Virus record (IMG/VR): IMGVR_UViG_3300045283_000172
Span: 1 to 57,948 of that record
DNA from: a virus
Taxonomy: Duplodnaviria; Caudoviricetes
DNA: 57,948 nt
Reading direction: 5' to 3' (one strand)
Part shown: in pieces, positions 128 to 57,948 of the stretch
Numbering within the stretch: position 1 is the first letter of the stretch
Layout: every line of letters starts with the position of its first letter
The notes under the pieces: model-generated
Told to the model about the DNA's origin: nothing
What the model saw: the letters and a program-made list of their open reading frames with translations, nothing else
Databases searched by the model: none
Translations under genes and position numbers: made by a program

Positions 128-161
128 CAAGAGAAAATATAATAGACCTAAAGGGTAATAT

Positions 162-491
162 ATGAATGAGGCTATATTTTTATTAATAATCGGCAACCTT
201 CTATTGACAGCTGTTAATATATACCGTAATAAAAGGCATATTGATGAAATGCGTCATGATATAGAAAGTTATCGGGAGATAGTCAAAAACTTTATTAATG
301 TATGCAATTCTTCTGATAAACCTAAAAGAACTAAGACTGGTAAAGTACGTGATCAATGGGGTAGATATATGACATTAGGTCAACAAATTAAACCTTTAAA
401 GCTTAGAATCAAAGGTAAAAACGGTAAGTTTGTAAATCAAAGTAAATTTACATTACATGGGATATTAAGAAGAATTAGTAGCACTAAGTAA
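162..491 (+). CDS. Hypothetical protein with N-terminal membrane anchor
   Basis: 109 aa ORF, hydrophobic N-terminus; start resembles the ORF at 57800. Confidence 0.7.
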   Translation: MNEAIFLLIIGNLLLTAVNIYRNKRHIDEMRHDIESYREIVKNFINVCNSSDKPKRTKTGKVRDQWGRYMTLGQQIKPLKLRIKGKNGKFVNQSKFTLHGILRRISSTK

Positions 492-519
492 ATTATTAAT
501 TAAAAATGAATAAAACAAC

Positions 520-1524
520 ATGACTAGAATGGTACCATTAAAGGAAGCTATCAATATATTTGAAAAGCATAAAATAAATAAGATAAAGAATGACAACCCT
601 TTGCTCTATAAGGCTGAGGGATCGATTTCACCCTTCTCATCTACTAATTATATATTAGAAAAGATAAGACAAGAAAAATTTGAAATTTATTCCCCACAGG
701 ATGACATAAAAATAGCAGGTAAAAGTCTATTAAAATTAGTAAGTAAAAAATATTATATTCCTAATCGTGATCCTTCTATAGGTGAAGGTTTACAATTATA
801 TGGTAAAGCACATACAGAGATTACAGAAACTCCGTATGGTAATAATGGGATAGAATTTGAGAAGATTTATCTTAATTTTTATGCTGACACTTTTCTAAAC
901 ATGCCATCACAGGAAATAGAGATAGATGTTGAGACAGGTAAATCAACAGTAATAAATAAAGTTCCTCTTGATGATTGGGTTAATGAAGAACTTTGTGATT
1001 TATTTGAAAATTATGATTACGATAGTTTATATAACCCTAGTATAAACTATACAGTAATGGGTAGCTGGAAAGAAAATAAGATTAGATATACAGATATATC
1101 GGTTAAACTTGATGAATTAATGGAGTTAATAAATCGTGAGTTTAATACTATACCGTCAGAATATACTCCTGTTATTGATGACATGGTAAGTAAGTACGGA
1201 GATACTATTAACAAAGTATGGAAACAGACTAGAGAACTTCATGATCAAGTACATATATTAAAAATTAACTATGTTGAAATTATACAGTTTTATAATGAAT
1301 ATAGGTTAGATATACCTAAAGAGCTTATACAAGGAAGGTTAGAGTCAGAATCATTTAATAAATACTATAGAGAAACTAAATCCTATGAGAAAGATCTAGA
1401 TGCTTTTTTTAAAGAAGATATTGAGTTACAAAAAGAATTTAATAATGAGATTGATGTATTTCTGTGTAAACTTAATCCAAGTAAGTATATTGATCATTTA
1501 ATAATACCGGAGACAAATAAATGA
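520..1524 (+). CDS. Hypothetical protein (paralog of 1702-2253)
   Basis: 334 aa ORF; shares LxxAxNIFEK, KND and LxLYxKxxxxxxET with 1702-2253. Confidence 0.8.
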   Translation: MTRMVPLKEAINIFEKHKINKIKNDNPLLYKAEGSISPFSSTNYILEKIRQEKFEIYSPQDDIKIAGKSLLKLVSKKYYIPNRDPSIGEGLQLYGKAHTEITETPYGNNGIEFEKIYLNFYADTFLNMPSQEIEIDVETGKSTVINKVPLDDWVNEELCDLFENYDYDSLYNPSINYTVMGSWKENKIRYTDISVKLDELMELINREFNTIPSEYTPVIDDMVSKYGDTINKVWKQTRELHDQVHILKINYVEIIQFYNEYRLDIPKELIQGRLESESFNKYYRETKSYEKDLDAFFKEDIELQKEFNNEIDVFLCKLNPSKYIDHLIIPETNK

Positions 1525-1733
1525 CATATATGAGCGGCTTTCTATTTGGGGCGATTATAGGTTTGTTGATACATAGCTTTAAGACTAAACGTGAATTAGA
1601 AGATCGAATAGATAGATTAGAAATTCGTATAAATAACAAATTATCTTTCTCTGAAGAGAAACTTAAAAGTTCATATTATCATATTAAAGATAAGGAAAAT
1701 AATGACATTCATATCTTTAGAAAAAGCTTGTAA
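1521..1733 (+). CDS. Small membrane-anchored hypothetical protein
   Basis: ATGA overlap with upstream gene, hydrophobic N-terminus. Confidence 0.65.
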   Translation: MTYMSGFLFGAIIGLLIHSFKTKRELEDRIDRLEIRINNKLSFSEEKLKSSYYHIKDKENNDIHIFRKSL

Positions 1734-2253
1734 CATATTTGAAAAATTTAAATTGAAGAATGATATTAAAGAATCTATAAGTATGCGGGATTGTTTAGTT
1801 AGAAATCATATCATTAGAAGATTACCACTTTATATAAAGAATGATGAAGGATACGAAGAGACAGAGGATGATATTGCTACTATAACTTCGGATATATTTA
1901 TATATTACGATGATATATATTACTTTTGTGATAAAGAATTAATGCCTCAGATGTCTTATATTGGTTGTCCGTGTTGTGGTGCGGATTATCAAGATGATGA
2001 AGAATCTAAACCTATACCTTTAACTGCACAGTCTAGTGAAATAAGCAAAGCGTTAAGACCGGGATTATATGAGATTATAGGTAAAAGAAATAATTATGCA
2101 GCTGCTATTGATCGTGAAGAAATTCGTAAGGCGTATGATTCTTCTAGTTGTAATTTCTTTAATATATTTGAAAAACCACACATATTAGCTAAATGGAGAA
2201 ATAACCCTAAACTACCCTTAAAAGTAGAAATGAAATATATAGGTTATAAATAA
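1702..2253 (+). CDS. Hypothetical protein (paralog of 520-1524) with CPCC motif
   Basis: 183 aa ORF in tightly packed operon. Confidence 0.75.
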   Translation: MTFISLEKACNIFEKFKLKNDIKESISMRDCLVRNHIIRRLPLYIKNDEGYEETEDDIATITSDIFIYYDDIYYFCDKELMPQMSYIGCPCCGADYQDDEESKPIPLTAQSSEISKALRPGLYEIIGKRNNYAAAIDREEIRKAYDSSSCNFFNIFEKPHILAKWRNNPKLPLKVEMKYIGYK

Positions 2254-2507
2254 TGGGCAAAAATGTTGAAATTAATGCGATAGATAAATTAGTTTCAAGA
2301 CGTTTAAAATATCGTAGAAGATTATTAGGTATAACTCAAAAAGAGCTTGGTATCTCTGTAGGGGTAAGTATTCAACAAATTCAAAAGTATGAAGCAGGGA
2401 CTAATCGCATTTCATGTGGTAAGTTATATGCTTTTGCAGAGTTATTAGAAGTGCCTGTAGGTTATTTCTTTGGGGATGAAACAGATAACTTTACAATTAG
2501 GAGATAG
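2253..2507 (+). CDS. XRE-family helix-turn-helix regulator
   Basis: GITQKELG..VSIQQIQKYEAGTNRIS, the alphaproteobacterial XRE signature. Confidence 0.92.
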   Translation: MGKNVEINAIDKLVSRRLKYRRRLLGITQKELGISVGVSIQQIQKYEAGTNRISCGKLYAFAELLEVPVGYFFGDETDNFTIRR

Positions 2508-2964: not shown

Positions 2965-3305
2965 AAAAGATTAAACTAGGGAATCAGTTATCGTTTCTTC
3001 CCGTACATTCTATCAATATTTTAAATATGTTGATAGAGCATGACAAACCCTTACGAATAAAAGAAATACAGGATGTTTATGGTATATATCCCCAACAAGT
3101 TTATTTCATTCTATGTAGATTAGTAGAACAAAAATTAGTTGTTAAAGTGACAAGAGGGGTAGATCCTTATTATTGTTATGTAATTAATAAAGACTGTAAG
3201 GATAAATATCTGTATATTATTAATGGCATAGATAGTCTAAAAACTAAATGTTTGGATATTAATAATAAGATTGATGAACTTATACAAAATAAAAAAGAGG
3301 GATAA
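2961..3305 (+). CDS. Winged-helix DNA-binding protein (paralog of 2659-2964)
   Basis: SFLP...EIQ...RLVEQKLVVKV aligns with the upstream gene. Confidence 0.65.
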   Translation: MKKIKLGNQLSFLPVHSINILNMLIEHDKPLRIKEIQDVYGIYPQQVYFILCRLVEQKLVVKVTRGVDPYYCYVINKDCKDKYLYIINGIDSLKTKCLDINNKIDELIQNKKEG

Positions 3306-3635
3306 ATGACAAGTATTTCTAAAATTCCTTTTGGTTTAAAACCTTTATCACCAGATAACAATAACAGTAGAATACCATTTAATCAAAAACCAGATGGAGA
3401 TCCTTTACATATAAGATTATCTAATGGTGACTTAACTGAAGATGAATTATCATATTATACTATAGAAGGTACTATAGTTGAGTTATTGTATTCTCATGAA
3501 AGATTCATGCGTAGGTTCATGAGAGGTAAAGAGGAAGCTAGCAAAGTTGTCAATAATCTTAATACAACGGTGATAGAAATAGAGGCGTTACAAGAAAAAT
3601 TAAAAGAATTAGAAAGAGGAATAAATGACAAATGA
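3306..3635 (+). CDS. Hypothetical protein, probable diverged copy of 2961-3305
   Basis: RBS present; collinear residual motifs; flanked by a 19 bp junction repeat. Confidence 0.65.
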   Translation: MTSISKIPFGLKPLSPDNNNSRIPFNQKPDGDPLHIRLSNGDLTEDELSYYTIEGTIVELLYSHERFMRRFMRGKEEASKVVNNLNTTVIEIEALQEKLKELERGINDK

Positions 3636-4749
3636 ATATTTAAAAGGAATGTGTTACTCCGCATTTCCTATGAGCTATAATCCATCAACAGCTAATAAGA
3701 CATGTATATTCTTTGGTAGCGATATAGCATCACATAATTTAATGCCTTTATGGGGTAGTTCTTTTACTCCTAACGATGGTCCTGATAAGAATAAACTTTT
3801 TACAGGACGTAATGATATATTAGCTATGCGCAAAATGGGGGTTAACCTTATAAGATTATATGATTGGGATCCTAGGAATGATCATACTGATTTTTTAGAT
3901 TATTGTCATAGTAATAGAATCAAGGTATTAGCTCCTGTATCTAATTATAATTTAGGGGCATATGGTACACCACCTCCGATGGATGAGTCTATAAAGAATT
4001 TGCTTAAATCTTTTGGTAATAATAAGGGTACAGATTATCACCCAGCTATTTATGGAATTATAATAGGCTCAGAGCTTGATTTACCATCGGAAATGCCTCA
4101 AGGTTATTTAGCCAAATATACTAAAAGATGGGTGGAATTAGAAAAGGATGTACTATCTAATGCATCTAAACTCCCTATCGGTCATCCTGTAAGTTTTGCA
4201 AAGCATAACGGTGATTATCCATGTTTTGAATTCTGGGATAAGTTACTAGAAGAGTTAAAACATGTAACTACTAATGATTTGAATAAAAGACTTATTCTTT
4301 GCCCTCATACATATAATGAAGCTTCTTATTTGTTTGGTAATGCAGAAGGTACATTCAGAGGATGGGTAGATATAGCATATGATAAATACCAATTACCTAT
4401 ATTATTTTGTGAAATAGGATGCAGCAGATTAGTAAGAGATGATTACATACAAGTTGTGGCTGATCAATTAGAAAAATCCCATACATATGGCAAAGATAAT
4501 AAGCATAAATTACTAGGTACTTGTTTCTTCCAATTTTGTGATAAGGTATGGATGCCTAATACAACTGAAGGATCATTTGGTGCTTTATACAATACTAAAG
4601 CTACACATTATTTTGTTAAATATGGTGCTAAAGATTTTAGCCATACAGATGGTAACAATTGTAAAGATCAGTCATTAAGAGTATCAGCATTAGATATTAA
4701 TCCTGTATATAATACTGTAAAACTAATATATACCTGTGATATTAAATGA
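3625..4749 (+). CDS. Clan GH-A glycoside hydrolase, GH72 (Gas/Gel)-like
   Basis: YLKGMCY, DILAMRKMGVNLIRLY..DH, IIGSELD (acid/base Glu), LPILFCEIGC (nucleophile Glu). Confidence 0.75.
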   Translation: MTNEYLKGMCYSAFPMSYNPSTANKTCIFFGSDIASHNLMPLWGSSFTPNDGPDKNKLFTGRNDILAMRKMGVNLIRLYDWDPRNDHTDFLDYCHSNRIKVLAPVSNYNLGAYGTPPPMDESIKNLLKSFGNNKGTDYHPAIYGIIIGSELDLPSEMPQGYLAKYTKRWVELEKDVLSNASKLPIGHPVSFAKHNGDYPCFEFWDKLLEELKHVTTNDLNKRLILCPHTYNEASYLFGNAEGTFRGWVDIAYDKYQLPILFCEIGCSRLVRDDYIQVVADQLEKSHTYGKDNKHKLLGTCFFQFCDKVWMPNTTEGSFGALYNTKATHYFVKYGAKDFSHTDGNNCKDQSLRVSALDINPVYNTVKLIYTCDIK

Positions 4750-7444: not shown

Positions 7445-7521
7445 TGGTCGGGGTAGAAAGATTTGAACTCTCGACCTCCTGTACCCAAAACAGGTGCGCT
7501 ACCAAGCTGCGCTATACCCCG
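7445..7521 (-). tRNA. tRNA-Pro(TGG)
   Basis: Full cloverleaf: acceptor CGGGGTA/TACCCCG, anticodon arm CCTGT-TTTGGGT-ACAGG, TTCAAAT T-loop, encoded CCA. Confidence 0.95.
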
Positions 7522-10886: not shown

Positions 10887-11078
10887 ATGTTATTAATTTT
10901 AAGAGAAAGGTTAATTAACAAACTAAAACACCGAAAGGAAGAATTAACCAACTCACTTTTACAAGATAACGTTGATGATTTTGCAGCTTATCGTTATCTG
11001 ACAGGTAAAATTCGAGGGGTTGATGATTCTATAGAGTTAATTAGAGCAGTATTTAAAGGAGAAGATGATGACATCTAA
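10887..11078 (+). CDS. Small helical phage protein of the type found upstream of phage GroES
   Basis: DFAAYRYLTGKIRGV motif and position. Confidence 0.75.
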   Translation: MLLILRERLINKLKHRKEELTNSLLQDNVDDFAAYRYLTGKIRGVDDSIELIRAVFKGEDDDI

Positions 11079-11634
11079 ATTGACTGAAGAAGATCTAGAG
11101 ATATTAGGATTAGATTTAGAAGATTACTCTCAATCATCAATAGATGAGCTTTTAAAATGGGAATGTTCTTTTGATAATGTGGAGTTTATTACTAGGAAAG
11201 AATTCGAATGGGCGACAGCTGCTATTCCTACTTATGAATTCCCCTCAAGGGAATTGACTTATATAGCTGAAATGATGGTTAGACGTATTCATTTTATTTG
11301 TTTTAAATTAAATCTTATTGATAAAGGTTTTAGTTGTGTATTTCCGAATATCACAAAGTTTAAGTCGAAAATACACAACTATATTAAAGAATATGAAAAG
11401 GTAATTAAAGGGACTATAGAACTTAGAGAAAAGAGACAAGAAATAAAACCTCTAAAAAGTTATTTGGGTGCAGCCTCAGTTAAGATAGAAGGTGCGGAAA
11501 TCCCAGATGATGAGTTAGGTGAATACAATTCACCTAAGGACGTAATAGAAATATTAAGAGAACGTAATATAAAACGTTTAGAGAAATTATTTAAAGAACA
11601 AGAAACAAAAGGAGAAGATGATGAGATTAACTGA
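11065..11634 (+). CDS. Hypothetical protein, probable chimera of duplicated neighbouring genes
   Basis: 189 aa; flanked by an exact 17 bp repeat; see findings. Confidence 0.75.
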   Translation: MMTSKLTEEDLEILGLDLEDYSQSSIDELLKWECSFDNVEFITRKEFEWATAAIPTYEFPSRELTYIAEMMVRRIHFICFKLNLIDKGFSCVFPNITKFKSKIHNYIKEYEKVIKGTIELREKRQEIKPLKSYLGAASVKIEGAEIPDDELGEYNSPKDVIEILRERNIKRLEKLFKEQETKGEDDEIN

Positions 11635-12025
11635 AACTTACGAAGATCCAGGGATTGATTTAGATAATTTTGATAAGGAAGCTGAGATAGCAAAGTTCCC
11701 TACCCATATACCTCTACCTTTATGGAATATACAAATACGTCTATACACTACACCTAAAAAGACAACAGGCGGTTTAATTTTAACTGACACAGAACATAAT
11801 ATGCAACAATACCATGTTGTTACAGGTTTAGTAGTCAGAGTAGCACCTGGTGCTTATAAAGATGCAAGATATAATGGAATGCCTCCTGCTTGCAAAGTAG
11901 GTGATTGGGTAGTTATAGGCAGACATTCAGGTATAAAATTAAATTATAAAGGGATGCCGATTTATTACGTTAAAGAGGATGCTATTGAAGATGTGGTAGA
12001 AGACCCACGCTATATAACAAAATAA
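11618..12025 (+). CDS. groES: Co-chaperonin GroES-like protein
   Basis: KTTGGLILTD mobile loop, GLVVRVAPGAY, KVGDWV. Confidence 0.92.
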   Translation: MMRLTETYEDPGIDLDNFDKEAEIAKFPTHIPLPLWNIQIRLYTTPKKTTGGLILTDTEHNMQQYHVVTGLVVRVAPGAYKDARYNGMPPACKVGDWVVIGRHSGIKLNYKGMPIYYVKEDAIEDVVEDPRYITK

Positions 12026-12034: not shown

Positions 12035-13096
12035 ATGAATCAAGAACATAACACTCAAGCTACTATACAAGCAGAAGCGTTAGAGGCTCAAAATTTACCT
12101 GAGCTTAGAAATGCTTTTGAAACTATTGAGAAATTCAAAAATAATGACGAACAACTTATTTTAGATGAGAATGGTTTTCCTGTCCAAGAGGAAGGTGAGA
12201 AAGATGAGGAACTTCCTGAAGATGAAAATGAGGAAGAAGAGAACGAAGAACTTCCTGAAGATGAAAATGAGGAAGAAGAGGAATATATTCCTCCAAAGCC
12301 TGTAAAAGAAAAAAAAGTAGATAAGTATAGAAAGTTACAAAATGATAAATATAGAGCATTAGCTGAAAAAGAAGAAGCTCTACAGAAAATAGCTGAATTA
12401 GAAGGGTTAGTCCAAGAGTTCTCTAGTTCAGGCACTTATCATTATAGTAAAAATATATATGCTGACCTAGATAGAGCGAAAGAAGATAAGAAGAGAGCTT
12501 TTGAAGAAGGTAATCTAGATAATCTTGTAGAAGCTGATATTAGTATAGCAAAAGCTATACAAGCTATTAATGATCTTGAAAAATGGGCTAATGAGAATGA
12601 ATCAAGACAACTAACAAATTCTAAATATCAAGATAATGAAAGATCTTCATATCAAGAATCTGTTTATCAAGAAATAGCTAAGGATTGGATCGATACTCAT
12701 CCTTATTTAAAACCTCATTCAAGAAGTTATAATCCAAAATTAGCTAGCAAAGTTACACAATTCATCACTGAATTGGATGATAATCTGTATAGAAATAGGG
12801 AAGAAGCAGCTATTTTTTCAGAAGAATACTTTGATACTATAGATAATTATATCCATTCAAAAACTGGCCCTAAACGTGATACTTCAAAAAAGATAGAATC
12901 CTTATCTAATGTAAGCGGGGTAAGAAATACAGCTTCAGCAGGTGGGAGTAAATCTTCGTCAACAAACCAAATGACATTGACTAAAGAAGAAAAAATCATG
13001 GCAGACAATGCAGGTCTTTCGCATAAAGATTGGTTAAAAGAAAAAATTTATTATTCAAAACATGACAGAGAAAGAGGTGGTCAATATGGAAGGTAG
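12035..13096 (+). CDS. Putative capsid scaffolding protein
   Basis: Acidic N-terminus, coiled coil, C-terminal LTKEEKIMA..GL helix; position. Confidence 0.7.
   Translation: MNQEHNTQATIQAEALEAQNLPELRNAFETIEKFKNNDEQLILDENGFPVQEEGEKDEELPEDENEEEENEELPEDENEEEEEYIPPKPVKEKKVDKYRKLQNDKYRALAEKEEALQKIAELEGLVQEFSSSGTYHYSKNIYADLDRAKEDKKRAFEEGNLDNLVEADISIAKAIQAINDLEKWANENESRQLTNSKYQDNERSSYQESVYQEIAKDWIDTHPYLKPHSRSYNPKLASKVTQFITELDDNLYRNREEAAIFSEEYFDTIDNYIHSKTGPKRDTSKKIESLSNVSGVRNTASAGGSKSSSTNQMTLTKEEKIMADNAGLSHKDWLKEKIYYSKHDRERGGQYGR
12209..12280 (+). repeat. In-frame tandem repeat, 39 bp period (ELPEDENEEEE x2)
   Basis: 33 bp identical at 12209-12241 and 12248-12280. Confidence 0.9.
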
Positions 13097-17351: not shown

Positions 17352-17352
17352 T

Positions 17353-39732: not shown

Positions 39733-39750
39733 ATATAAAACTCAATTTAT

Positions 39751-43870: not shown

Positions 43871-44416
43871 TTAAAATAAAGCGTTTTCTTCTTCAATAGG
43901 CTCAAATGCTCCGTCTATTTTCATTGGCTCATTACCAAATGAAACACCATCCTTTCTAAATTGAACGGCTTTTATATTAGCAGTCATACCTGTGCTTATT
44001 TCATTATAAAAATATAAAGTTATATAGGCACTAACATAACAACCAGCATAAAACATATTATCATCTTCATGTACTGGAGTAATTCCATCTTTCCCAACAA
44101 CAGGAAAACTGTTAATGGATTTAGCATTTAAAATATATTTGTTTTTATACTCTTCTTTGTCGCTATCATCCCCATCTTTAAAACAGATATCTTTTAATTT
44201 TTGTATAGATGTTTTATTTTCTGTTAAAAGATTATCAATTGCTTTTTTTATTGTCTCTATTTCTTTGGCATGTTCAACTTTATCTAATATAAAACTTGCT
44301 TGATATTTAGGTTTAGCATCCGCTGGAGCTTTTGGATGAACTGTACGTCTAAATAATGATGGATAAGATAATCTAACATCGTTAAGTTTAATTGGATTAG
44401 AAGTTTTCAGAGACAT
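43871..44416 (-). CDS. Single-stranded DNA-binding protein (DUF2815/gp2.5-like)
   Basis: VRLSYPSLF, KY, KDGD, FYAGCYV.A, VQF.KDG, acidic tail ending in F. Confidence 0.9.
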   Translation of the reverse strand: MSLKTSNPIKLNDVRLSYPSLFRRTVHPKAPADAKPKYQASFILDKVEHAKEIETIKKAIDNLLTENKTSIQKLKDICFKDGDDSDKEEYKNKYILNAKSINSFPVVGKDGITPVHEDDNMFYAGCYVSAYITLYFYNEISTGMTANIKAVQFRKDGVSFGNEPMKIDGAFEPIEEENALF

Positions 44417-45895: not shown

Positions 45896-46069
45896 TTAAA
45901 ATTCCCTAGTTTTTAAATCATATAACTTAGCATCTAATTCGTCTACCCTATCTATTAGATCCATAATTAATTCTTTTAAATGGGTAGGATGTTCGATATG
46001 TTCTAATTTTTCTATAGCTTCTATTCTTTTAGTTAACTTTTTTATAAGTTCAGTGTTATCTTTTTCCAT
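45896..46069 (-). CDS. Small hypothetical protein, 57 aa (not in ORF track)
   Basis: MEKDNTELIKKLTKRIEAIEK...; weakly similar to 45532-45894. Confidence 0.55.
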   Translation of the reverse strand: MEKDNTELIKKLTKRIEAIEKLEHIEHPTHLKELIMDLIDRVDELDAKLYDLKTREF

Positions 46070-46221
46070 TTTATTTTTCTTCTATTTCTTTTAATTATAT
46101 TTTCAAATTCATTTATTACCTTAAATACCGTATCACTAATTCCCCCGCTCATCATCGTAACATTTTGAAGTTCATATATTAAATCAGCAATATCTTTTAC
46201 TATTTTTTTTGTTTTTCCATT

Positions 46222-46599
46222 TTATTTTTCCTTCGTGATTGTATTTATAAGTTGATTAATGATATTAAGTTCGGCAATGCTTAGTTTTGTTATATTAACT
46301 AATTTAGGAAATTTCCCTGATGTTTTGTTAGCATCTATTGCTATATCTAAGGAAGTACATATATCTTGTATAAAATCAGTGATATTATATTGAAAATAAT
46401 TACAAACCATTAACAAGCGTCCTAATGAAATACGATTAATCCCTGCTTCATATTTTATTAATTGTTGAACACTTATTTCTAATTCTATTGATAATTCTTT
46501 GGCTGTAAGACCTCTTTGACGCCTTAATAGTTTAAGAGTATTACCAACATGTTTAGCTACATGTTTACAGAACTCCTTAGACGATAATTCTTTTTTCAT
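46222..46599 (-). CDS. XRE-family helix-turn-helix regulator
   Basis: ISVQQLIKYEAGINRISLGRL. Confidence 0.9.
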   Translation of the reverse strand: MKKELSSKEFCKHVAKHVGNTLKLLRRQRGLTAKELSIELEISVQQLIKYEAGINRISLGRLLMVCNYFQYNITDFIQDICTSLDIAIDANKTSGKFPKLVNITKLSIAELNIINQLINTITKEK

Positions 46600-48089: not shown

Positions 48090-48121
48090 AACCGCAGAAC
48101 TATGCCAAAAGTAAATACTTA

Positions 48122-48232
48122 TTGACATTTATTTAAAATATGGTTACAGTAAAGCTGGTTATTGCCAGCAATATACTTTTCTTCTTTATATAGTTGCTTC
48201 ATTCGGGTTTATTGATCGCCTGGCAATAACCA
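48122..48232 (+). promoter_or_regulatory. Promoter followed by a structured leader or sRNA
   Basis: TTGACA-N17-TACAGT; 13 bp stem 48156-48168/48220-48232. Confidence 0.55.
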
Positions 48233-48348: not shown

Positions 48349-50472
48349 ATGCAAATACGAATGTCCTTTGTTAAGAATAGCTGGGATACAAACCCTAATG
48401 ACAAAATTCTATCATTTGAGGAATTAAGCAAGACTCTAACCACATTTACTGTTTGCGATAAAAAGAACGCCCCTGGAATAATAGGAGGCTACTTCAATGG
48501 AAAATCTCGAGATACACACAATTTACAGGCAAGAACATTACTTGTCCTAGATGTAGACTATTACAATGGCCATATAAACGATTTAGAGATACTTTTTAAA
48601 AGGAGTTTGACTCCCTATAGGTACATTGCCTATTCTACAGCATCTCATGCTTTAAACAGCCCTAGAATTAGAATTGTATTATTTTTTTCCAAAGAGGTAC
48701 TTACTCAAGAATATAGACAAGTTAGTTCTAATTTCATTGACGGATTAGATATTGCTTTTAAAAATACTATTGAAATACCTACTAGTATTAAAGCTAATCA
48801 GATGATGTATTTGCCTATAAAGCCTCATGATGATTACATACCATGGTATGTGGTACAAGATGGAGAATCAATTGACCCAGATAGTTATATAACATCCAGT
48901 ACACAGTTAGCTGTTCAAGATCCGTTACTTTTAACGATAAAAAACGTACCCTTAGAGATCAGTGAGGGCAATATAGTTAATTATTTAACTAATTATCCCG
49001 TAGAGGAGAGAGATTATTACGAATGGATAGAAGTAGGAGCAGCTCTTCATCATCAATATCAGGGTAATGATGAAGGACTTATCATGTGGAATAAGTGGTC
49101 TAAAAGAGACCCAAGACCTGATAAGTATAAGGGATTGTATGAATTAGAACAAAAGTGGAACAGTTTTAAATCTAACTTAGAAAATCCCATTACTTTTGCA
49201 ACCATTATATACAAGACTAACAATAATTTACCTGTTGATAATGGCGTTAAGTTTAGAGCTATTTATCGTGAAAAATGGCAAGATACTAAGGGTAAATACC
49301 AAACTCCTATATTTACCAAGGCTAATTTCAAAATATTATTAGAAGAGTATAAGATTGACATTAGGTTTGACGTTATTAAGAAGGCTGTAGAGATTATTAT
49401 TAATGGCGTTAAGGTGATAGATATCAACCATGGGATAACTGAGATTAAATTACTTTGTAAACTTAATGGGATGGAAAGCAATCCAGTCAATGAGGCGGTA
49501 GCCTTGATAGGAAATCAGAATACATACAATAGCTGGAAGGATTGGGTATATTCTATTCCATGGGACGGTATTAAAAGATTTGGTGAATTTTGCAAGACGG
49601 TCAAAGTTTCCCCTGATATGGAAAGAGTTAGAGATTTATATTTAAAGAAATGGTTTTTACAACTGATTAATGTTACATGTCTTAACGACGGGGAAGAGGG
49701 GAAGGTCGCACGTATGATCTTAATATTCCAGGGAAGGCAATATTCAGGAAAGACTAGTTGGTTTAGGGCATTAGTACCTGCTTCTCATAATGATTTTGTA
49801 ACTGAGGGCACATCATTAAAAATTTCAGATAGTATGGCTATTCTTAGATGTATTCAGCATGTCATTGTAGAACTTGGAGAGATAAACTCCACAATGAAGA
49901 AATCAGATAATGACGAGCTTAAGAATTTCCTAAGTTCGACTAAGGATACATTGAATATCAAATACGTAGCATATCCTGTAACTTACAGAAGGCGTACAGT
50001 TTTTTTCGGATCAGTTAATGAGAATGAATTTCTGCAGGATCAGACTGATAATACCAGATTTTTATGTCTACCTATTCTTGATTGTGATTATAAGCATAAT
50101 ATAGATATGCAGCAGGTATATGCTGAATTACTAGAAATGACAAAGACTGACAATGATTACTTTCTAAGTCCTTCTGATTTGGAGGTGCAACAGAAAATGA
50201 ACTGTTTTTTTAAAAGTATATCTGTGATTGAAGAGAAATTCCAAGAAATATTTGAAGTAGAAAACGCATTAACACAACCTAGGGAAAGTATGATAGTATA
50301 TAATGCTACTAAATTACTGGAGGAATTAGGTTTCAACATTAATCAGATGTTACATAAGAAGAATCTAACTAATGAGATGGCAAAGATATTAGATTCCTAT
50401 GGTTTTAAACGCAGTTCTAAACCCAAGGGTTGGTATTTACCATCTAAAAGAATTAACGATATAGGGTTCTGA
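48349..50472 (+). CDS. Primase-helicase (AEP-like + PriCT-2 + VapE-type helicase)
   Basis: LVLDVD, YSTASH, PRIR; YYEWIEVGAALHH..W..WS; QGRQYSGKT, RRTVFFGSVN. Confidence 0.92.
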   Translation: MQIRMSFVKNSWDTNPNDKILSFEELSKTLTTFTVCDKKNAPGIIGGYFNGKSRDTHNLQARTLLVLDVDYYNGHINDLEILFKRSLTPYRYIAYSTASHALNSPRIRIVLFFSKEVLTQEYRQVSSNFIDGLDIAFKNTIEIPTSIKANQMMYLPIKPHDDYIPWYVVQDGESIDPDSYITSSTQLAVQDPLLLTIKNVPLEISEGNIVNYLTNYPVEERDYYEWIEVGAALHHQYQGNDEGLIMWNKWSKRDPRPDKYKGLYELEQKWNSFKSNLENPITFATIIYKTNNNLPVDNGVKFRAIYREKWQDTKGKYQTPIFTKANFKILLEEYKIDIRFDVIKKAVEIIINGVKVIDINHGITEIKLLCKLNGMESNPVNEAVALIGNQNTYNSWKDWVYSIPWDGIKRFGEFCKTVKVSPDMERVRDLYLKKWFLQLINVTCLNDGEEGKVARMILIFQGRQYSGKTSWFRALVPASHNDFVTEGTSLKISDSMAILRCIQHVIVELGEINSTMKKSDNDELKNFLSSTKDTLNIKYVAYPVTYRRRTVFFGSVNENEFLQDQTDNTRFLCLPILDCDYKHNIDMQQVYAELLEMTKTDNDYFLSPSDLEVQQKMNCFFKSISVIEEKFQEIFEVENALTQPRESMIVYNATKLLEELGFNINQMLHKKNLTNEMAKILDSYGFKRSSKPKGWYLPSKRINDIGF

Positions 50473-50474: not shown

Positions 50475-50954
50475 ATGAAATTAGAAGATATAAAAAGTAT
50501 ACATTTTCAATGTAGTTTACATGCTAATTATTATGATTCTGCTAGTAGACCCTTAAGTTGTGAAGTTCATTATATAGAGATTGTTACATATGATGGATGT
50601 CTAATAAATCTTGTTGATGCTTTAGAAATGGTCTTATGGGAAGGTGTTAATATTGATAATCAATTATATAATTTACTATTGATGGTTCGAGAAGCAGCTT
50701 CTAATTATGATTATAAAAGCGCAAAAAATATAAGTGAAGAATGTGATTTGTGGGTAAAATATTATAATGAAGAGTTTGCAGGTATGCATGATAGATATAA
50801 ACAGTTTTATAATTTTGATCTTACCTTAGATATGTTTAAAGATATAGAGATGGAGATTAAATATTTCCCATTTAGAATAAAAGAAGCTCTTGAAGAAAAA
50901 TTCACGGAAGCATTTAAATATTTCCATAACAAAGCAAAAGAATTAACGATATAG
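50475..50954 (+). CDS. Hypothetical protein, tandem family member 1 (resembles the primase C-terminus)
   Basis: Ends F..F.NKAKEL like the next two genes; flanked by an exact 25 bp repeat. Confidence 0.75.
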   Translation: MKLEDIKSIHFQCSLHANYYDSASRPLSCEVHYIEIVTYDGCLINLVDALEMVLWEGVNIDNQLYNLLLMVREAASNYDYKSAKNISEECDLWVKYYNEEFAGMHDRYKQFYNFDLTLDMFKDIEMEIKYFPFRIKEALEEKFTEAFKYFHNKAKELTI

Positions 50955-50964
50955 GGTTCTAACG

Positions 50965-51381: not shown

Positions 51382-51851
51382 AAGATATAGGTAAAGTAGA
51401 AGTTAAATTCTTATTAGTTACTAATAATTTGGTTGCAGATCGTATTCTCCCTACTCCATGGGTGAACATAGATATCATCCCTAAAATGGTTGTTCCAATT
51501 ATACCAGCTATTAAATACAAAAATTATGATATAGAGGAAGTTATCAGGGATTTAATACGTTTTGAGTCTGATCATATAAGGATATTTTCTATATTAAGTT
51601 TATTTACGGAGGCAAGATTAGATTTTATTGCTAAATATAGAGATAAAATGAATGAAGATAGACAAATGTGGTTGCATTTTATAAAGAAAGTATCAGAAGA
51701 TGAAAGTTTAAATAATAAAGTTGGATGTAGTTTTACTTTTATGCAAGATGCTTTTGAAGATAAAGACTTTCCATTAAAACAAGCGATTGCAGATCAATTC
51801 AATGCGGCATACGATTATTTTTATAACAAAGCAAAAGAACTAATAGAATAA
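51372..51851 (+). CDS. Hypothetical protein, tandem family member 3
   Basis: MELEDI start; FP..K.A....F..A..YF.NKAKEL. Confidence 0.75.
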   Translation: MELEDIGKVEVKFLLVTNNLVADRILPTPWVNIDIIPKMVVPIIPAIKYKNYDIEEVIRDLIRFESDHIRIFSILSLFTEARLDFIAKYRDKMNEDRQMWLHFIKKVSEDESLNNKVGCSFTFMQDAFEDKDFPLKQAIADQFNAAYDYFYNKAKELIE

Positions 51852-51855: not shown

Positions 51856-52200
51856 ATGGAAGAAGACATAAAATTTAGTATTTCAATTAGTGAAAATGAA
51901 GAAACTAAAAAGATTGATTTTGAATTGAAATTAGTAGATAAAAATACTAATAAGATGCTAGCATGGGAGAGTGAGGAGGGTGAGGTAGTAAAGATATTAG
52001 CTAAACATTATGTTCCTATATTAGAGAATCTTTTTGTTGATAATAAAGGTTTTTTTATCAACAAAGAATGGGCGGTAGATTATCATGTTTTCTTATCCTC
52101 TAAATGGGAAACCATGGAAAAGATAAAAGCTATGATAAAATTGTATAGTACTATAGAAAAAGATCTTGTTATCTCTAAAGACAAGGTATCATTTAATTAA
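51856..52200 (+). CDS. Hypothetical protein
   Basis: 114 aa ORF, MEEDIK start. Confidence 0.7.
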   Translation: MEEDIKFSISISENEETKKIDFELKLVDKNTNKMLAWESEEGEVVKILAKHYVPILENLFVDNKGFFINKEWAVDYHVFLSSKWETMEKIKAMIKLYSTIEKDLVISKDKVSFN

Positions 52201-52239
52201 CAAAGATTAAAATATTAACTTATTAACATTTATTAACAT

Positions 52240-52740
52240 ATGGCTATAATACGAGGTACAGTAAAGAAGAAGTTAGGTAACCCTAACATGGTAAAAGGGG
52301 TATCTGGCAATCCTAACGGTAGGCCTAAGGGAAGGTATAGCGATATAACGCTTAGTTTCATGAAACTTAAGAAGATCGCATCTACTAGAGTTGATGAGGC
52401 TTTTAATATGTTATGGTCAGCAATGGAAAGGGGAGAGTCATGGGCATTTCAGATATACTATAAGGAGTTATATACTTTGCCACGTAATATAGATGAAAAG
52501 ACAGTAACTATAACGGCTACAGATACAAGTTTAGATGGACAGATTGAAACACTTACGAGTATATTGCCTGAATTTGATGAGGTTACACATGATGAGTCGT
52601 TAAATAGGTTAAAGGTATTGAATGCTGTCAAGGGTAATGATGTTCTAGTTAAACAGAATGATGAGATTAGGGAGACTAGAGAGACATTACTTGAGAAGGT
52701 AGAACTTATACAACAGATTAGAGATTTTAAGGGGGTATAA
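52240..52740 (+). CDS. terS: Putative terminase small subunit (DUF5681-type N-terminus)
   Basis: KGVSGNPNGRPKG, then ..A..G..WA helix pattern. Confidence 0.7.
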   Translation: MAIIRGTVKKKLGNPNMVKGVSGNPNGRPKGRYSDITLSFMKLKKIASTRVDEAFNMLWSAMERGESWAFQIYYKELYTLPRNIDEKTVTITATDTSLDGQIETLTSILPEFDEVTHDESLNRLKVLNAVKGNDVLVKQNDEIRETRETLLEKVELIQQIRDFKGV

Positions 52741-52741: not shown

Positions 52742-52948
52742 ATGAATGATAAAGTAAAATTATCTGAAAAAGGAGTAAGGATTTCTGAAGAAGGAGATGT
52801 AGAAATATGGGTTGATTCTGAGTGGGTGAATTATGAGATTTATAAAAAATTAAACCCATCACATACTGGCATTAGGAATGCAAGAAAACAAATAGATGAC
52901 TATGAAGAAAAGCATGGATCTATTTTTGGGGAACAAAATAATGAATGA
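52742..52948 (+). CDS. Hypothetical protein
   Basis: 68 aa ORF with RBS. Confidence 0.6.
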   Translation: MNDKVKLSEKGVRISEEGDVEIWVDSEWVNYEIYKKLNPSHTGIRNARKQIDDYEEKHGSIFGEQNNE

Positions 52949-53138
52949 TAAGTATATAGATGAAGCTGTAAGAAAGTATTTTGCAGATAGTAAGAAAGGT
53001 AGTAAAACATTTGTTTCATCTATATTAAGCTCTAGAGAATTCATGAGAATGAAGATGGATCCTTCATATCCTATTAATGAATTCACAGATAGAATAGAAG
53101 AGATTGAAAAGAAATATTCAAATAAAAAGATGGATTAG
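52941..53138 (+). CDS. Hypothetical protein (start moved from 52896)
   Basis: MNDK start overlaps the upstream stop; faint similarity to TerS. Confidence 0.55.
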   Translation: MNDKYIDEAVRKYFADSKKGSKTFVSSILSSREFMRMKMDPSYPINEFTDRIEEIEKKYSNKKMD

Positions 53139-53159
53139 AGATTTTAAGGAGAAGGTGTA

Positions 53160-53363
53160 ATGAACATAGAAGATGAATTAGTAACATATTATAATCCTAA
53201 TGAGGAATTAGTAAATGATTACAAGGAAGAAAATCGGAAAGAAGATTTACTATTTGCTAGAGAAATGAGGGAATTTAGAAAGTCATTAGATGAAGGTGGT
53301 TCCAATAAAGAGAAAGTTTTTAGAGGTTTTTCTGTAGAAAGAGATTTTAAGGAGAAGGTGTAA
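53160..53363 (+). CDS. Hypothetical protein resembling the TerS C-terminus
   Basis: EMREFRKSL..EKV..RDFK vs TerS EIRETRETL.EKV..RDFK. Confidence 0.65.
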   Translation: MNIEDELVTYYNPNEELVNDYKEENRKEDLLFAREMREFRKSLDEGGSNKEKVFRGFSVERDFKEKV

Positions 53364-53479
53364 TGTCGGAAGAAGTTGACATAGAAGATGATGAAATACC
53401 TGAGGACTGCGCATGTGGTTGTAATTGCGGCTTTTGTCCTTGTTTGCATACGTTCGTTCTACACGGGATTAAAACATAA
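53363..53479 (+). CDS. Cys-rich mini-protein, 38 aa (not in ORF track)
   Basis: Strong RBS; DCACGCNCGFCPCLH. Confidence 0.5.
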   Translation: MSEEVDIEDDEIPEDCACGCNCGFCPCLHTFVLHGIKT

Positions 53480-53518
53480 TAAGGAAATTATTTAAAGAAC
53501 AAATAGGATCATTAAGTT

Positions 53519-54956: not shown

Positions 54957-54972
54957 TTTTACACAATACTTA

Positions 54973-55000
54973 TTGACATACTTTACATAATAGTCTACTT
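54973..55000 (+). promoter_or_regulatory. Putative promoter with TACATAAT box
   Basis: TACTTATTGACAT (same as at 48116), TACATAAT in the spacer, intergenic. Confidence 0.5.
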
Positions 55001-56236: not shown

Positions 56237-56426
56237 CTGGGAAATTGCACATCAAGAGTATAAAGCCTTTAGAAAACGATGGGATAATAAGAATATATTT
56301 GAATATGGGGAGAAGATGCTAGATTTAGATAAAAACGTCCCAAGAAAATCCTCAGAAGAATTAAATGCTATGTCACTTAGGGAATATCTTGATTATTTAA
56401 AAGCTCGATATGGTAGTCTAACTTAA
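56226..56426 (+). CDS. Hypothetical protein
   Basis: 66 aa ORF overlapping the upstream stop. Confidence 0.6.
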   Translation: MVANWEIAHQEYKAFRKRWDNKNIFEYGEKMLDLDKNVPRKSSEELNAMSLREYLDYLKARYGSLT

Positions 56427-56685
56427 TGAATAAACACGAATTATTTCAAGCAATTATATACTTAGTAATTATTATATTACTAAGTATAATGCTATCAGAT
56501 CTGACATTAATTCGTAATGATATAGAGGAACTAAAGGACTGGTTATACTTAATTACTAAAATGTTATTAGATTAAATAACTACCTAAAAACCATAATAAA
56601 CCCCTATAATTTATAAACTAGTAATTGACTTTGCATCATTAAGATGTATTGTTTTAACCTTATTAACTTATAATATTTATAAATT

Positions 56686-57399
56686 ATGATCCCTCAAAAT
56701 ATTTTAGTAACGAATGCTAAAGATCTTCTAAATCATATTATTGACAATATAAATAAGGACAATAAAGTAAAAAAATCTATGTATAAAAAGTACATAGATG
56801 TATTCACAAAAAATATCGATATTGTTCTTAATGAATTTAACAAAACAGATTGTGAGTCAGTCCATTTTAAATTAATAGATTCGAAATTATATTTTAACAT
56901 AGGTAATAATGGGGTTTATGAATATTATTCTACTAACTTGCCTGTTAATGCCGAACTTATTAAACAGAGAGGTCATCCCTTTTTAGGTCTACTAATAGCT
57001 GATCTAAAGTCAATTATATACAAGAATGGTTTTAAGTATATTGAGGATTTACTCAATAGATTATTAGGTGGTGTAGGTTTAGGGGCAAAGGATCGGGTTC
57101 CGGAAGCAGAGAGGGAGGCATTTATTTTATCAGTAGGGGAAAAGTTCGCCGAACAGATTGATAAATTAATTATTACTTTATCTCAGCATGCTAAAATGGC
57201 TGATGATGTAGATGGGTTTGTGCTCGCAGAATGGGATGATAAAAGGTCTTTAATTGATGCTAAAACTTTACACATGGTATGTAAAAACACAGATAATTTT
57301 AACGAATTTTTCTATAAATATATAGAAACAACGATAGTACTTATGGCTAGAAGTGCTTTTGAGCTTGAACAAATAGTTGATAAGATAAAATATAATTAG
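56686..57399 (+). CDS. Hypothetical protein
   Basis: 237 aa ORF downstream of a TTGACT promoter-like element. Confidence 0.8.
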   Translation: MIPQNILVTNAKDLLNHIIDNINKDNKVKKSMYKKYIDVFTKNIDIVLNEFNKTDCESVHFKLIDSKLYFNIGNNGVYEYYSTNLPVNAELIKQRGHPFLGLLIADLKSIIYKNGFKYIEDLLNRLLGGVGLGAKDRVPEAEREAFILSVGEKFAEQIDKLIITLSQHAKMADDVDGFVLAEWDDKRSLIDAKTLHMVCKNTDNFNEFFYKYIETTIVLMARSAFELEQIVDKIKYN

Positions 57400-57408
57400 A
57401 AATAAAGT

Positions 57409-57807
57409 ATGAGCATCAGAGGTAAAAAATATCTAAAGAAAGGTTTAGAGGAGATAAATCTTACAGCAGAAGATTCCTATGATTACATATCTAGATACAG
57501 TGATAAGTGTACTCATCTATTATGGAGGATAGAAAGTTTACTATGGGAGTTAGATCACTTAGAAGGAATACCAACTAAGTTTGATAGAGTAGCATGGGAT
57601 GAGGGTAAGATCACACTTAAAAGGACATTAGAAATACCTCCATCAACGTCTGAAAAATTCCCAGATACTATAAGGAAATATGTAGAGTTAATGATACAAT
57701 CATTAAAGGAAGACGGGGATTCTCTAAATGAGGATTTGATTAATTGGAAAGAATGCTTAGGTATAAAAGGTAAGAAAATATTATCAGGTATAAAAAAATA
57801 TGAATGA
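57409..57807 (+). CDS. Hypothetical protein
   Basis: 132 aa ORF. Confidence 0.7.
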   Translation: MSIRGKKYLKKGLEEINLTAEDSYDYISRYSDKCTHLLWRIESLLWELDHLEGIPTKFDRVAWDEGKITLKRTLEIPPSTSEKFPDTIRKYVELMIQSLKEDGDSLNEDLINWKECLGIKGKKILSGIKKYE

Positions 57808-57948
57808 GATTATATTTTGGGTTGGTTTAGGTGTTACTATTTTCTATGTAGTGGTCTCTATTATTTATATGGTTCAATTAAATAGAATGGTAACTCACTA
57901 TAGAGAAATAATATTGTTCTATCGAGAAACTTGTAATCGTTTAGAAGA
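57800..57948 (+). CDS. Membrane-anchored protein spanning the circular junction (stop at 156-158)
   Basis: MNEIIFWVGLGVTIFYVVVSIIY...NRPKG stays open across the join. Confidence 0.7.
   Translation, partial: MNEIIFWVGLGVTIFYVVVSIIYMVQLNRMVTHYREIILFYRETCNRLE
57822..57948. repeat. Terminal direct repeat, copy 2
   Basis: Identical to 1-127. Confidence 0.95.

Follow-up and report, generated by a model that had tools for sequence, protein, structure and literature searches.

The window analysed here, a whole virus record of 57,948 nucleotides, is a complete phage genome of ~57.8 kb with a direct terminal repeat of 127 bp (1-127 = 57822-57948). Nine pairs of direct repeats lie in it, each bracketing one or two small genes (Table 1). 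All nine had been listed in a first-pass annotation of the sequence, and all nine were recovered at the same positions and with the same match counts. The repeats are 17-31 nt long and coincide throughout with translation junctions, made up of a few terminal codons and the stop codon of the upstream gene, the ribosome-binding site (RBS) and the next start; a start codon together with an RBS-like stretch falls within seven of the nine. Their sequences are pair-specific without a single consensus, one motif, AGAGATTTTAAGG, recurring three times. What pairs 5 and 7 repeat behind the next gene is the end of a coding sequence, its last 8-9 codons plus stop, from the DNA polymerase (pair 5) and from the primase-helicase (pair 7). 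Because the terminal repeat joins the genome ends, pair 1 brackets one 59-codon ORF that runs across them.

Table 1. Junction repeats, enclosed genes, empty sites and candidate recombination genes in the window
Feature	Position	Strand	Match	Context
Pair 1, copy a	57798-57818	+	19/21	g090 end/RBS/start of g091 (ATATGAATGAG..TATATTTT)
g091	57800-57948, continuing at 128-158	+		ORF bracketed by pair 1
Pair 1, copy b	160-180	+		Start of g002 (162-491)
Pair 2, copy a	3294-3312	+	18/19	RBS/TAA/ATG before g010 (3306-3635)
Pair 2, copy b	3613-3631	+		Before g011 (3625-4749)
Pair 3, copy a	11055-11071	+	17/17	Last g021 codons (KGEDD) overlapping g022 start (11065-11634)
Pair 3, copy b	11608-11624	+		Last g022 codons (KGEDDEIN) overlapping g023 start (11618-12025)
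Pair 4, copy	39725-39750	-	24/26	g052 end/g051 start, ankyrin genes (Pfam matches)
Pair 4, copy	40529-40554	-		g053 end/g052 start; g052 = 39751-40536
Pair 5, copy	41249-41279	-	30/31	g055 end/g054 start; copy of last 9 DNA polymerase codons + stop
g055	41249-41833	-		Ankyrin gene enclosed by pair 5
Pair 5, original	41835-41865	-		C-terminal codons of DNA polymerase g056 (41835-43592)/g055 start
g057	43871-44416	-		Gp2.5-like ssDNA-binding/annealing protein (PHROG phrog_112, E 2e-31); candidate recombination enzyme
g058	44449-45528	-		Exonuclease (PHROG phrog_69, E 3e-88); candidate recombination enzyme
Pair 6, copy	46061-46079	-	19/19	Start of g060 (45896-46069)
Pair 6, copy	46212-46230	-		Past stop of g062
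Pair 7, original	50446-50470	+	25/25	Last 8 codons (KRINDIGF) of primase-helicase g069 (48349-50472)
Pair 7, copy	50936-50960	+		End of g070 (50475-50954), other frame (KELTI*), then g071 start
Empty site, g072 tail (AKELIE*)	51825-51851	+		L081 carries one more family member (150 aa), flanking repeat 21/24
Empty site, g073 stop + 12 nt	52195-52212	+		L081 has an extra 158-aa gene, exact 18-nt flanking repeat
Pair 8, copy a	52716-52732	+	17/17	g074 end
ORFs inside pair 8	52742-52948 and 52896-53138
Pair 8, copy b + pair 9, copy a	53133-53162	+		Junction GATTAGAGATTTTAAGGAGAAGGTGTAATG before g076 (53160-53363)
Pair 9, copy b	53340-53365	+	26/26	Before 38-codon ORF 53363-53479
g087, 66 aa	56226-56426	+		In-frame fusion of L081 93-aa and 89-aa genes

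Chance is excluded for the repeat set as a whole. The genome contains 22 maximal exact direct repeats of at least 17 nt, 20 of them local (within 1.5 kb of each other); 100 order-3 Markov simulations averaged 0.67 such repeats in total and 0.02 local ones. Six of the 20 local repeats are pairs 3, 5, 6, 7, 8 and 9; seven lie within one repetitive tail-fibre gene, three belong to the tail-fibre paralogs g040/g041, two are short in-gene tandem repeats, one is ankyrin-internal and one connects tails of the g070 family. Complementarily, we used a second null that preserves RBS/start similarity, comprising 2837 same-strand pairs of start-junction windows. Only 13 pairs scored 14 or more; eleven of these belong to genes at most two apart, one is g002/g091, adjacent on the circle, and one is distant, so that 12 of 13 join neighbouring genes (Fisher p 1.5e-12), and 2 of 2670 distant junction pairs scored as high. 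Pair 2, with a junction score of 16, is marginal when taken by itself.

Gene content at the junctions in related phages

The relative L081 and a 56.9-kb contig from run X2 are each ~96% identical to the window and are probably the same strain. Runs X2, X13 and X12 are other metagenomes, the latter two yielding fragments only; run comparisons were made on assembled contigs, which showed neither a recombination intermediate nor a variant within the sample, and the close-relative comparison amounts to essentially one sister lineage. Repeats at gene borders mark small accessory genes that are inserted, deleted or swapped. At pairs 1, 5, 6 and 8, the enclosed DNA is precisely absent from relatives and one junction copy is left, a pattern that insertion and deletion explain alike. 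L081 lacks g091 and retains a single hybrid junction, while the X2 contig departs from the window at 57818 and passes into g002 sequence. The pair 5 joint in X2 and X13 (41248->41835) skips 586 nt and is ambiguous by 9 nt; in X12, the skip is 590 nt, with 12 intervening letters. The DNA polymerase (g056; PHROG, E 5e-169) keeps its tail (MLKNLG.K) in the outgroups L082 and L083, so the copied tail is native to the polymerase. Similarly, the pair 6 joint in X2 and X13 (46080->46232) skips 151 nt with an ambiguity of 1 nt; the interior (46080-46211) holds a 6-codon ORF that ends behind an A8 run and, next to it, the open frame g061 of 37 aa. Neither ORF of pair 8 occurs in L081, X2 or X13; in each of these, a single full junction copy comes after g074. 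The first-pass annotation had proposed looking for such sites, and its reading of the repeats as footprints of local recombination at gene junctions is borne out by them. In the reverse case, two sites that are empty in the window are occupied by additional genes in L081 (Table 1). A 142-aa gene with a 32/34 junction repeat at its flanks distinguishes the members of an independent pair of relatives, L082 and L083.

For pair 3, whose similarity extends to 48 nt at 75%, the polarity is settled, because homologs of g021 and of the Cpn10-like g023 abut in 33 of 35 relatives and the window has g022 between them. In two relatives (L004 and L005), a different 105-aa ORF occupies this position. Pair 4 is not polymorphic among close relatives, being present in the X2 and X13 contigs with no indel in either; among the four ankyrin genes of the window, g051 and g052 are missing from L083 and L087, where g053 adjoins g050. 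The pair 9 region is rearranged, with g076 in another context in L081 and breakpoints within the repeat at 53342 (X12) and 53347 (X2, X13).

Pair 7 involves a family of tandem paralogs (g070/g071/g072) with three copies in the window and four in L081. The primase-helicase g069 (Pfam VapE/PriCT_2) has a C-terminal tail conserved in 15 aligned orthologs, so the copied tail is native to it; the duplicated junction also occurs in L081 (20 nt exact). A microhomology of 12-14 nt (AAAAGAAYTAAC) connects the tail of a g070-family gene with the primase tail; it is of the kind that unequal crossing-over would leave, and the crossover can be read in the sequence. In L081/X2, 447-476 unrelated nt stand in place of the g070 body (50501-50909), while the first 26 nt and the last 45 nt of the gene are conserved. 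A body only ~30% identical within ~96% identical genomes indicates allelic replacement, not mutation in place, and the fast divergence in place proposed by the first-pass annotation is not supported here. Overall, where two junction copies surround a gene, deletions, insertions and allelic replacements end exactly at these copies, so that small ORFs are gained and lost whole, together with intact translation signals.

Gene fusions were also found. In g087, the N-terminal 30 aa and the C-terminal 31 aa match two separate L081 genes; at the joint (56322-56325) 671 nt are missing, with a microhomology of 6-8 nt. A 53-aa gene of L081, in turn, combines a junction start with the last 48 residues of g078. 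Breakpoints between the window and L081 (56322/56325, 52732->53971 and 53347->54411) lie inside genes with homology of at most ~8 nt, indicating that plain illegitimate recombination also acts and that junction repeats are not needed for every event.

Weighing the origins of the enclosed genes

Could each enclosed ORF be a tandem copy of a neighbour, shortened internally and diverging very fast in place while the junction stays conserved? This account would gain from an enclosed gene that keeps motifs of the upstream protein, as the first-pass annotation had claimed, yet protein Smith-Waterman alignment found resemblance to the upstream gene in none of nine cases (z -1.3 to 1.6), and DNA interiors matched upstream genes in none and downstream genes in one of nine. 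Lengthwise homology to the downstream gene, in contrast, was present in four of nine (z 5.9 for g091/g002, 9.5 for g052/g051, 11.4 for g055/g054 and 4.9 for g070/g071); the g091/g002 similarity is weak (rank 1 of 90), and the g070 and ankyrin groups are real arrays. Tandem paralogs thus exist in g070/g071/g072 and among the ankyrin genes, whereas a derivation of enclosed genes from upstream ones is not supported. The variation between three and four g070-family copies, a pair 7 microhomology that fits an unequal crossover duplicating one family member, and orphans nearly without database relatives (three matches for g022, three clusters for g070) are compatible with tandem copying, as are the in-frame deletion products g087 and the L081 53-aa gene, two instances of the predicted compression with the frame kept open. 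The profile of identity, however, is not: repeats are 90-100% identical, the DNA of the interiors does not rise above noise and their protein identity reaches 25-40% at most, and identity falls from 100% to noise right at the repeat edge without gradual decay. Repeat and gene body do not show the single age of tandem copies, the g070 body is beyond mutation in place, and g022 is unrelated to g021 and g023 except for a few terminal codons. We thus consider tandem copying with divergence in place improbable as a general account.

Other readings fare worse. That the repeats are conserved functional signals common to operon neighbours, serving translational coupling or as regulator operators, would suit their RBS-like stretches and start codons and the recurrent motif, but not their pair-specific sequences, the scarcity of equally high scores among distant junctions, the two repeats that are coding tails of polymerase and primase, or the coincidence of indel ends in relatives with repeats; we regard it as highly unlikely. 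Still less credence is due to an assembly artefact in which strain variants were joined serially at short common sequences. The window is a metagenome contig from a sample that holds strain variants, and a source-run contig (38000-41270) ends within the pair 5 repeat; however, an independent assembly of the source run (Logan contigs) reproduces pairs 4, 8 and 9 and, singly, the two pair 7 copies with 0 differences, pairs 7 and 4 recur in L081 and in X2 and X13, respectively, and a serial join requires that the junction sequence is truly present behind the enclosed gene. Equally far-fetched are small mobile elements (a transposon, homing-endonuclease gene or integrase cassette) with the repeats as target-site duplications: inserted DNA is indeed flanked by direct repeats and empty sites exist, but repeat length is variable, the repeats always sit at translation junctions, and Pfam and PHROGs searches of enclosed ORFs returned no transposase, integrase or homing-endonuclease family.

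We conclude that the repeats are probably recombination joints at gene junctions in plastic regions of the genome. Recombination at junction microhomology together with cassette exchange fits the data better than duplication, compression and divergence in situ; from the latter reading, local recombination, arrays and fusions survive, but upstream origin and in-place divergence do not. Such a joint would originate when two genome copies or two co-infecting relatives cross over, unequally or illegitimately, within a short stretch of microhomology (either the RBS/start or a common C-terminal codon string), which would set a gene behind a junction and duplicate that junction. Judging from family names, the likely catalysts would be the phage's Gp2.5-like annealing protein and exonuclease, acting by single-strand annealing; one repeat copy is kept, and a predicted annealing protein and exonuclease are encoded. 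In-frame deletion fusions give rise to new ORFs as well, as a by-product. The intracellular niche with few gene donors suggested by the first-pass annotation is contradicted by 765 portal homologs (E<=0.001, among scored candidates), 77 related IMG/VR loci and directly observed cassette exchange. The compared runs are soil and freshwater metagenomes, and the phage is a soil phage with many soil and freshwater relatives.

Comparison with known systems

The closest known analogues are PeSL shuffling in T4-type phages and gene 68 of mycobacteriophage Island3. Comeau et al. reportedly treated PeSL-mediated modular shuffling in T4-type phages in 2014 (PMC4122927). An earlier study describes orphan ORFs in plastic regions that are flanked by repeated short sequences, a single copy being kept at the empty site of a closely related phage, with ORFan insertion, deletion and replacement setting near-identical genomes apart (Arbiol et al. 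2010, PMC2839356). There, PeSLs are one dispersed ~100 bp consensus with a sigma-70 promoter and a terminator stem-loop, and mini-circles were demonstrated (PMC2839356). The window shares the repeat-flanked variable ORFans and the single-copy empty sites (pairs 1, 5, 6 and 8 and the two L081 genes) and the lack of a known dedicated recombinase. Unlike PeSLs, which bring their own transcription signals, its repeats are 17-31 nt, differ from pair to pair instead of following a single dispersed consensus, and are built from stop/RBS/start plus terminal codons. Promoter-like sites (129 vs 126.8 in shuffles) and terminator-like sites (8 vs 5.7) were not enriched, and none coincided with the nine pairs.

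In the same line, Island3 gene 68 is described as an inserted orphan, absent from a sister phage, that ends in residues and DNA copied from the C-terminus of its upstream neighbour; the authors propose recombination between ~50-bp sequences, either as a deletion within one molecule or as an insertion from another (Pope et al. 2011, PMC3029335). The inserted gene with a copied upstream C-terminus is common to both phages, but that account gives one case in a siphovirus, whereas the present genome alone has at least nine, to which its relatives add at least three, and the repeats are shorter. According to summaries in the same articles, Botstein-Campbell linkers and the boundary sequences of lambdoid phages are short conserved stretches at module borders that supply the homology needed for exchange and preserve the position of expression signals (PMC2839356, PMC3029335). 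In those summaries, the linker model concerns multi-gene modules exchanged between temperate phages, whereas junctions here bracket single small ORFs.

In phage T7, deletion between short direct repeats and annealing-based recombination have been studied experimentally with engineered repeats. The window resembles this in that one repeat copy is kept and a Gp2.5-like protein and an exonuclease of predicted activity are encoded; Gp2.5 is reported to be a phage recombinase family (Lopes et al. 2010, PMC2896510). Moron accretion, finally, places single extra genes between conserved genes, each with its own promoter and terminator and no conserved flanks (Hendrix et al. 2000, as cited in PMC2839356). 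Single genes are likewise added between conserved genes here; unlike morons as portrayed there, the cassettes point the same way as their neighbours and have the translation junction in common with them. Together, the junctions represent a known style of phage evolution that is unusually clear in this genome.

Junction repeats and their anatomy

All nine direct-repeat pairs that the first-pass annotation had placed at gene junctions, each bracketing one or more small open reading frames (ORFs), were in place exactly as written. Genome-wide, we counted 22 exact direct repeats of at least 17 nt, 20 of them local (within 1.5 kb), compared with order-3 Markov simulation means of 0.67 overall and 0.02 for local repeats. 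Six of the 20 local repeats are pairs from that annotation; the remainder fall in a repetitive tail-fibre gene, the tail-fibre paralogs g040/g041, two short in-gene tandem repeats, the ankyrin repeats and the tails of the g070 gene family. Because ribosome-binding sites (RBS) and start codons make junctions alike, all same-strand start-junction windows were compared pairwise. Thirteen of 2,837 pairs scored at least 14, comprising 12 neighbouring pairs and a single distant one (Fisher p = 1.5e-12). With all nine pairs present, enriched over simulation and specific to neighbours, the claimed junction repeats are significant; pair 2 on its own is marginal. Scanning the loci of 59 relatives for local repeats returned 185 pairs, mostly within genes, some of them junction-like (for example, in loci L029, L064 and L087). 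A search for the recurrent junction 15-mer in all related loci found nothing beyond L081, a relative ~96% identical to the window.

The repeat sequence is pair-specific, and most pairs comprise a stop/RBS/start junction with a few first or last codons. The pair 3 repeat codes for KGEDD at the ends of both g021 and the enclosed g022, and overlaps the next start. In pair 5, the 3' end of the DNA polymerase gene (nine codons plus the stop) is copied behind the ankyrin gene g055; this tail is conserved in the polymerases of the outgroup loci L082 and L083 and is therefore native to the polymerase. Pair 7 places a copy of the primase-helicase tail (final eight codons, KRINDIGF, which the 15 aligned orthologs conserve) behind the orphan g070, where it is shifted by one base and reads KELTI-stop. 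Proteins of the g070 family all have the ending ..NKAKEL(T/I)..; the tail of g070 keeps to the family consensus as far as AAAAGAAYTAAC and matches the primase tail from there on, so that the crossover microhomology can be read directly. The duplicated tails come from conserved upstream genes, and at least one joint lies within a microhomology of 12-14 nt.

At pair 6, the ORF running from the duplicated g060 start is six codons long, its stop lying right behind an A8 run. A single additional A would give a ~59-codon frame across the 151-nt insert, and the interruption may reflect a frameshifted gene, an error in sequencing, or slippage. The interior of the insert was rejected as a copy of g060, as 86 of 500 shuffles scored as high.

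Genome layout and single-gene differences among relatives

The first 127 bases recur at the end, indicating a complete, circularly closed assembly of ~57,821 bp that can be read as a circle. It has ~33% GC and ~91 called genes; its features are collected in the table.

Features of the window and their positions
Feature	Positions	Strand	Remarks
Direct terminal repeat	1-127 = 57822-57948		127 bp, exact
Structural genes	1 to 37.7 kb	+	Include SU10-type portal, tail-fibre protein with T7 tail-fibre N-terminal domain, Cpn10-like gene
Second gene block	37.8 to 47.1 kb	-	SNF2 helicase, four ankyrin-repeat genes, small endonuclease-like gene, DNA polymerase, Gp2.5-like ssDNA-binding/annealing protein, exonuclease, HTH regulator
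Third gene block	From 48.3 kb across the ends	+	Primase-helicase (PriCT_2 + VapE), then ~35 small ORFs, almost all without family
tRNA-Pro(TGG)	7445-7521	
tRNA-Gln(TTG)	43614-43689	-
AATACTTATTGACATTTA, three copies	37701-37718, 48114-48131, 54965-54982		Contains TTGACA; 0-3 mismatches
HTH-type regulator paralogs	2253-2507, 46222-46599		Opposite genome arms; 42% identical over 66 aa; 51-nt DNA match at 84%; relatives carry both
Repeat between g022 3' end and spacer before g078	11583-11601 / 53484-53502		19 nt, exact
Cpn10/GroES-like gene	11618-12025		Head module; Pfam E 2e-7; conserved in 70 related loci
In-frame tandem duplication, g024	12206-12283		39-nt unit twice, 92%
Three tandem paralogs	16689-18713		Structural module; 220-229 aa; E 2e-24 to 2e-9; conserved in 31-36 related loci
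Tail-fibre-like gene	21766-25032		1088 aa; T7 tail-fibre N-terminal domain at residues 694-737; C-terminus like g040/g041 and g026
Five copies of a 294-nt unit	22933-24531		Inside the 1088-aa gene; 61-74% identical
First 300 nt of adjacent tail-fibre-like paralogs	26234-26533 / 27127-27426		90% identical, including a 117-nt exact run; proteins 285 and 312 aa, 49% identical
In-frame tandem duplication, g043 start	29344-29411		23-nt exact repeat, 45 nt apart
Four ankyrin-repeat genes	39142-41833	-	Between SNF2 helicase and DNA polymerase
ORF from duplicated g060 start	46190-46222	-	Pair 6
Empty site for an L081 gene	52195-52212		Behind g073

The AATACTTATTGACATTTA copies occupy the three largest intergenic gaps, none of 100 shuffles gave three copies, and the sites are probably early promoters. 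At the spot matching 43.6 kb, L082 and L083 hold one and two tRNA-like sequences, respectively. The likeness between the starts of the two adjacent tail-fibre-like paralogs looks like recent gene conversion or duplication.

A 12-kb megablast query found no match, and no close relative, in the collection of deposited phages. With the primase as query, tblastn gave distant matches only (24%), to APSE-type and other VapE genes, and a genome-contig scan gave VapE matches at 30-37%, all in unrelated bacteria; both sets were left aside. The primase protein alone retrieved no related locus from viral contigs. Among the scored candidates, 765 were portal homologs at E <= 0.001, and the related IMG/VR loci numbered 77. 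The phage is a member of a large uncultured clade. Of the runs compared, X1, X2 and X12 (soil) and X13 (freshwater) are the metagenomes that contain the phage or close relatives of it; the habitat is read from these four and not from X3-X11 and X14-X24, whose shares are small.

L081 covers the initial 12.3 kb of a metagenome contig of 57,112 bp and aligns from 48.1 kb round to 1.6 kb at 92-98% identity over the aligned blocks. The first-pass annotation had proposed looking in relatives for empty sites with one junction copy, and such sites exist: L081 lacks both ORFs of pair 8 and has one full junction copy after g074, and g091 (pair 1) is missing with one hybrid junction remaining. Conversely, two genes are extra in L081: one of 158 aa behind g073, between the copies of an exact 18-nt repeat, and a fourth g070-family member behind g072, with a 21/24 family-tail repeat on its flanks. 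The g070 body itself is replaced by a ~30%-identical allele, its flanking first 26 nt and last 45 nt being conserved, and g076 lies in a different context. In the window, g087 fuses two L081 genes in frame, 671 nt being absent, and a 53-aa L081 gene consists of the junction start, five codons and the last 48 residues of g078.

Public contigs were compared over 38.0-57.9 kb of the window, the X1 cover having gaps between 41.3 and 47.9 kb and after 56.5 kb. In X2 and X13, g055 (pair 5) is skipped precisely (586 nt), with a 590-nt variant in X12, and the same two runs show a precise 151-nt skip at pair 6. Breakpoints at pair 9 fall within the repeat, at 53342 (X12) and 53347 (X2, X13), and pair 4 showed no indel in the contigs compared. 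More distantly, homologs of g021 and g023 occur together in 35 related loci and abut or overlap (-23 to +13 nt) in 33 of them, which makes g022 a gain at a conserved junction; L004 and L005 have a different ORF, of 105 aa, between the two homologs. L082 and L083, an independent pair, differ in the presence of a 142-aa family member, with a 32/34 junction repeat on its flanks. Two of the ankyrin genes, g051 and g052, separate the endonuclease-like g053 from the helicase g050 in the window; in L083 and L087, the two distant relatives with both g053 and g050, these are adjacent and g051/g052 are absent. Repeat copies are the exact ends of single-gene gains, losses and replacements between near-identical genomes.

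Sources of the enclosed genes

The first-pass annotation had explained the enclosed genes by duplication of a neighbour in place, internal deletion and fast divergence behind a conserved junction. In Smith-Waterman comparisons with 300 shuffles and all other genes as the null, none of nine enclosed genes resembled its upstream neighbour above chance (z -1.3 to 1.6), and four were significantly similar to the downstream one (g091/g002, g052/g051, g055/g054 and g070/g071). Once the repeats were excluded, interior DNA matched the upstream gene in none of nine cases and the downstream gene in one, the ankyrin genes of pair 4, so that similarity stops sharply at the repeat edge. Duplication, compression and divergence in place may be the origin of the g070 and ankyrin arrays; as a general account it fails on the missing upstream likeness and on this sharp edge, and the allele swap at g070 likewise speaks against divergence in place. 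Of the earlier interpretation, the local recombination anchored at junctions, the arrays and the in-frame compressions stand. Its gene source, mode of divergence and ecological rationale do not stand, and ankyrin genes by themselves are no demonstration of an intracellular niche. Readings of the repeats as functional signals, or of the cassettes as transposon-like elements, are each contradicted by specific results, and an assembly artefact is contradicted by Logan's independent contigs from the source run, which show the same arrangement at pairs 4, 8 and 9 and at each copy of pair 7 with 0 differences.

Full-length homologs in unrelated genomes, which the annotation had held would instead indicate insertion with target duplication, were sought with g022 and g070, and none was found: g022 has three database relatives only (99%, 80% and 44% identity), and for g070, a set of 1.84 billion representatives yielded two clusters in addition to its own. 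No Pfam family matched the enclosed orphans or members of the g070 family, and no PHROG matched g070-g073 or g022. The orphans are clade-restricted and moving within the clade. In L082, the early region contains a weakly similar relative of g022. The 19-nt repeat between 11583 and 53484, the sole long-distance repeat of junction type, hints at an origin of g022 in the early region; a search for it in all related loci found nothing beyond L081.

Mechanism and known systems

The first bracketing of a gene would arise by unequal or illegitimate recombination, with genome copies or co-infecting relatives as partners. Such an event would stack two alternative genes behind duplicated junctions, which would account for distant paralogs often being found downstream and never upstream. 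Once in place, the repeats, together with conserved gene termini, would offer homology for later deletion, re-insertion and allele replacement, with the exonuclease and the Gp2.5-like annealing protein as likely enzymes. Several breakpoints are intragenic with at most 8 nt of homology, some giving in-frame fusions, and the repeat is thus not needed for every event. A further reading, which we consider possible but rather doubtful, is that the clade has a cassette system that works without an integrase, in which translation junctions (stop-RBS-start with a few terminal codons) are the generic linkers and carry no promoter. The Gp2.5-type annealing machinery would loop out an orphan ORF lying between two junction copies and put it back, always translationally coupled, at the matching junction in a co-infecting relative; slipped events at the junctions would continually yield new in-frame ORFs (fusions, truncations and tails in another frame). 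If this linker-cassette reading were true, junctions would be a real source of new genes.

The origin of phage mosaicism is an old open question, with one view invoking homologous exchange at short conserved border sequences and the other random illegitimate joins followed by selection. This genome and its relatives provide a dense natural set of at least 12 single-gene insertions or deletions readable base by base, each with its border sequence, its empty site and sometimes the crossover microhomology visible, and including copies of polymerase and primase tails that serve as C-termini of orphan proteins. They show one concrete way in which phages gain, lose, swap and fuse small orphan ORFs, and make the question testable in an abundant uncultured clade of soil and freshwater phages.

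A keyword search of the open-access literature found no account of stop/RBS/start junction duplications around orphans as a genome-wide set, which does not prove its absence. Border sequences are reported absent at most mosaic boundaries (PMC3029335). The closest system is PeSL modular shuffling in T4-type phages (PMC2839356), which has in common with the window the flanking repeats, the empty site in a sister phage and the orphan cassettes; the window repeats differ in being translation junctions rather than promoter-terminator sequences, in being pair-specific and in being shorter. A single published case looks identical: Island3 gene 68 carries a copy of the C-terminus of gene 67 (PMC3029335).
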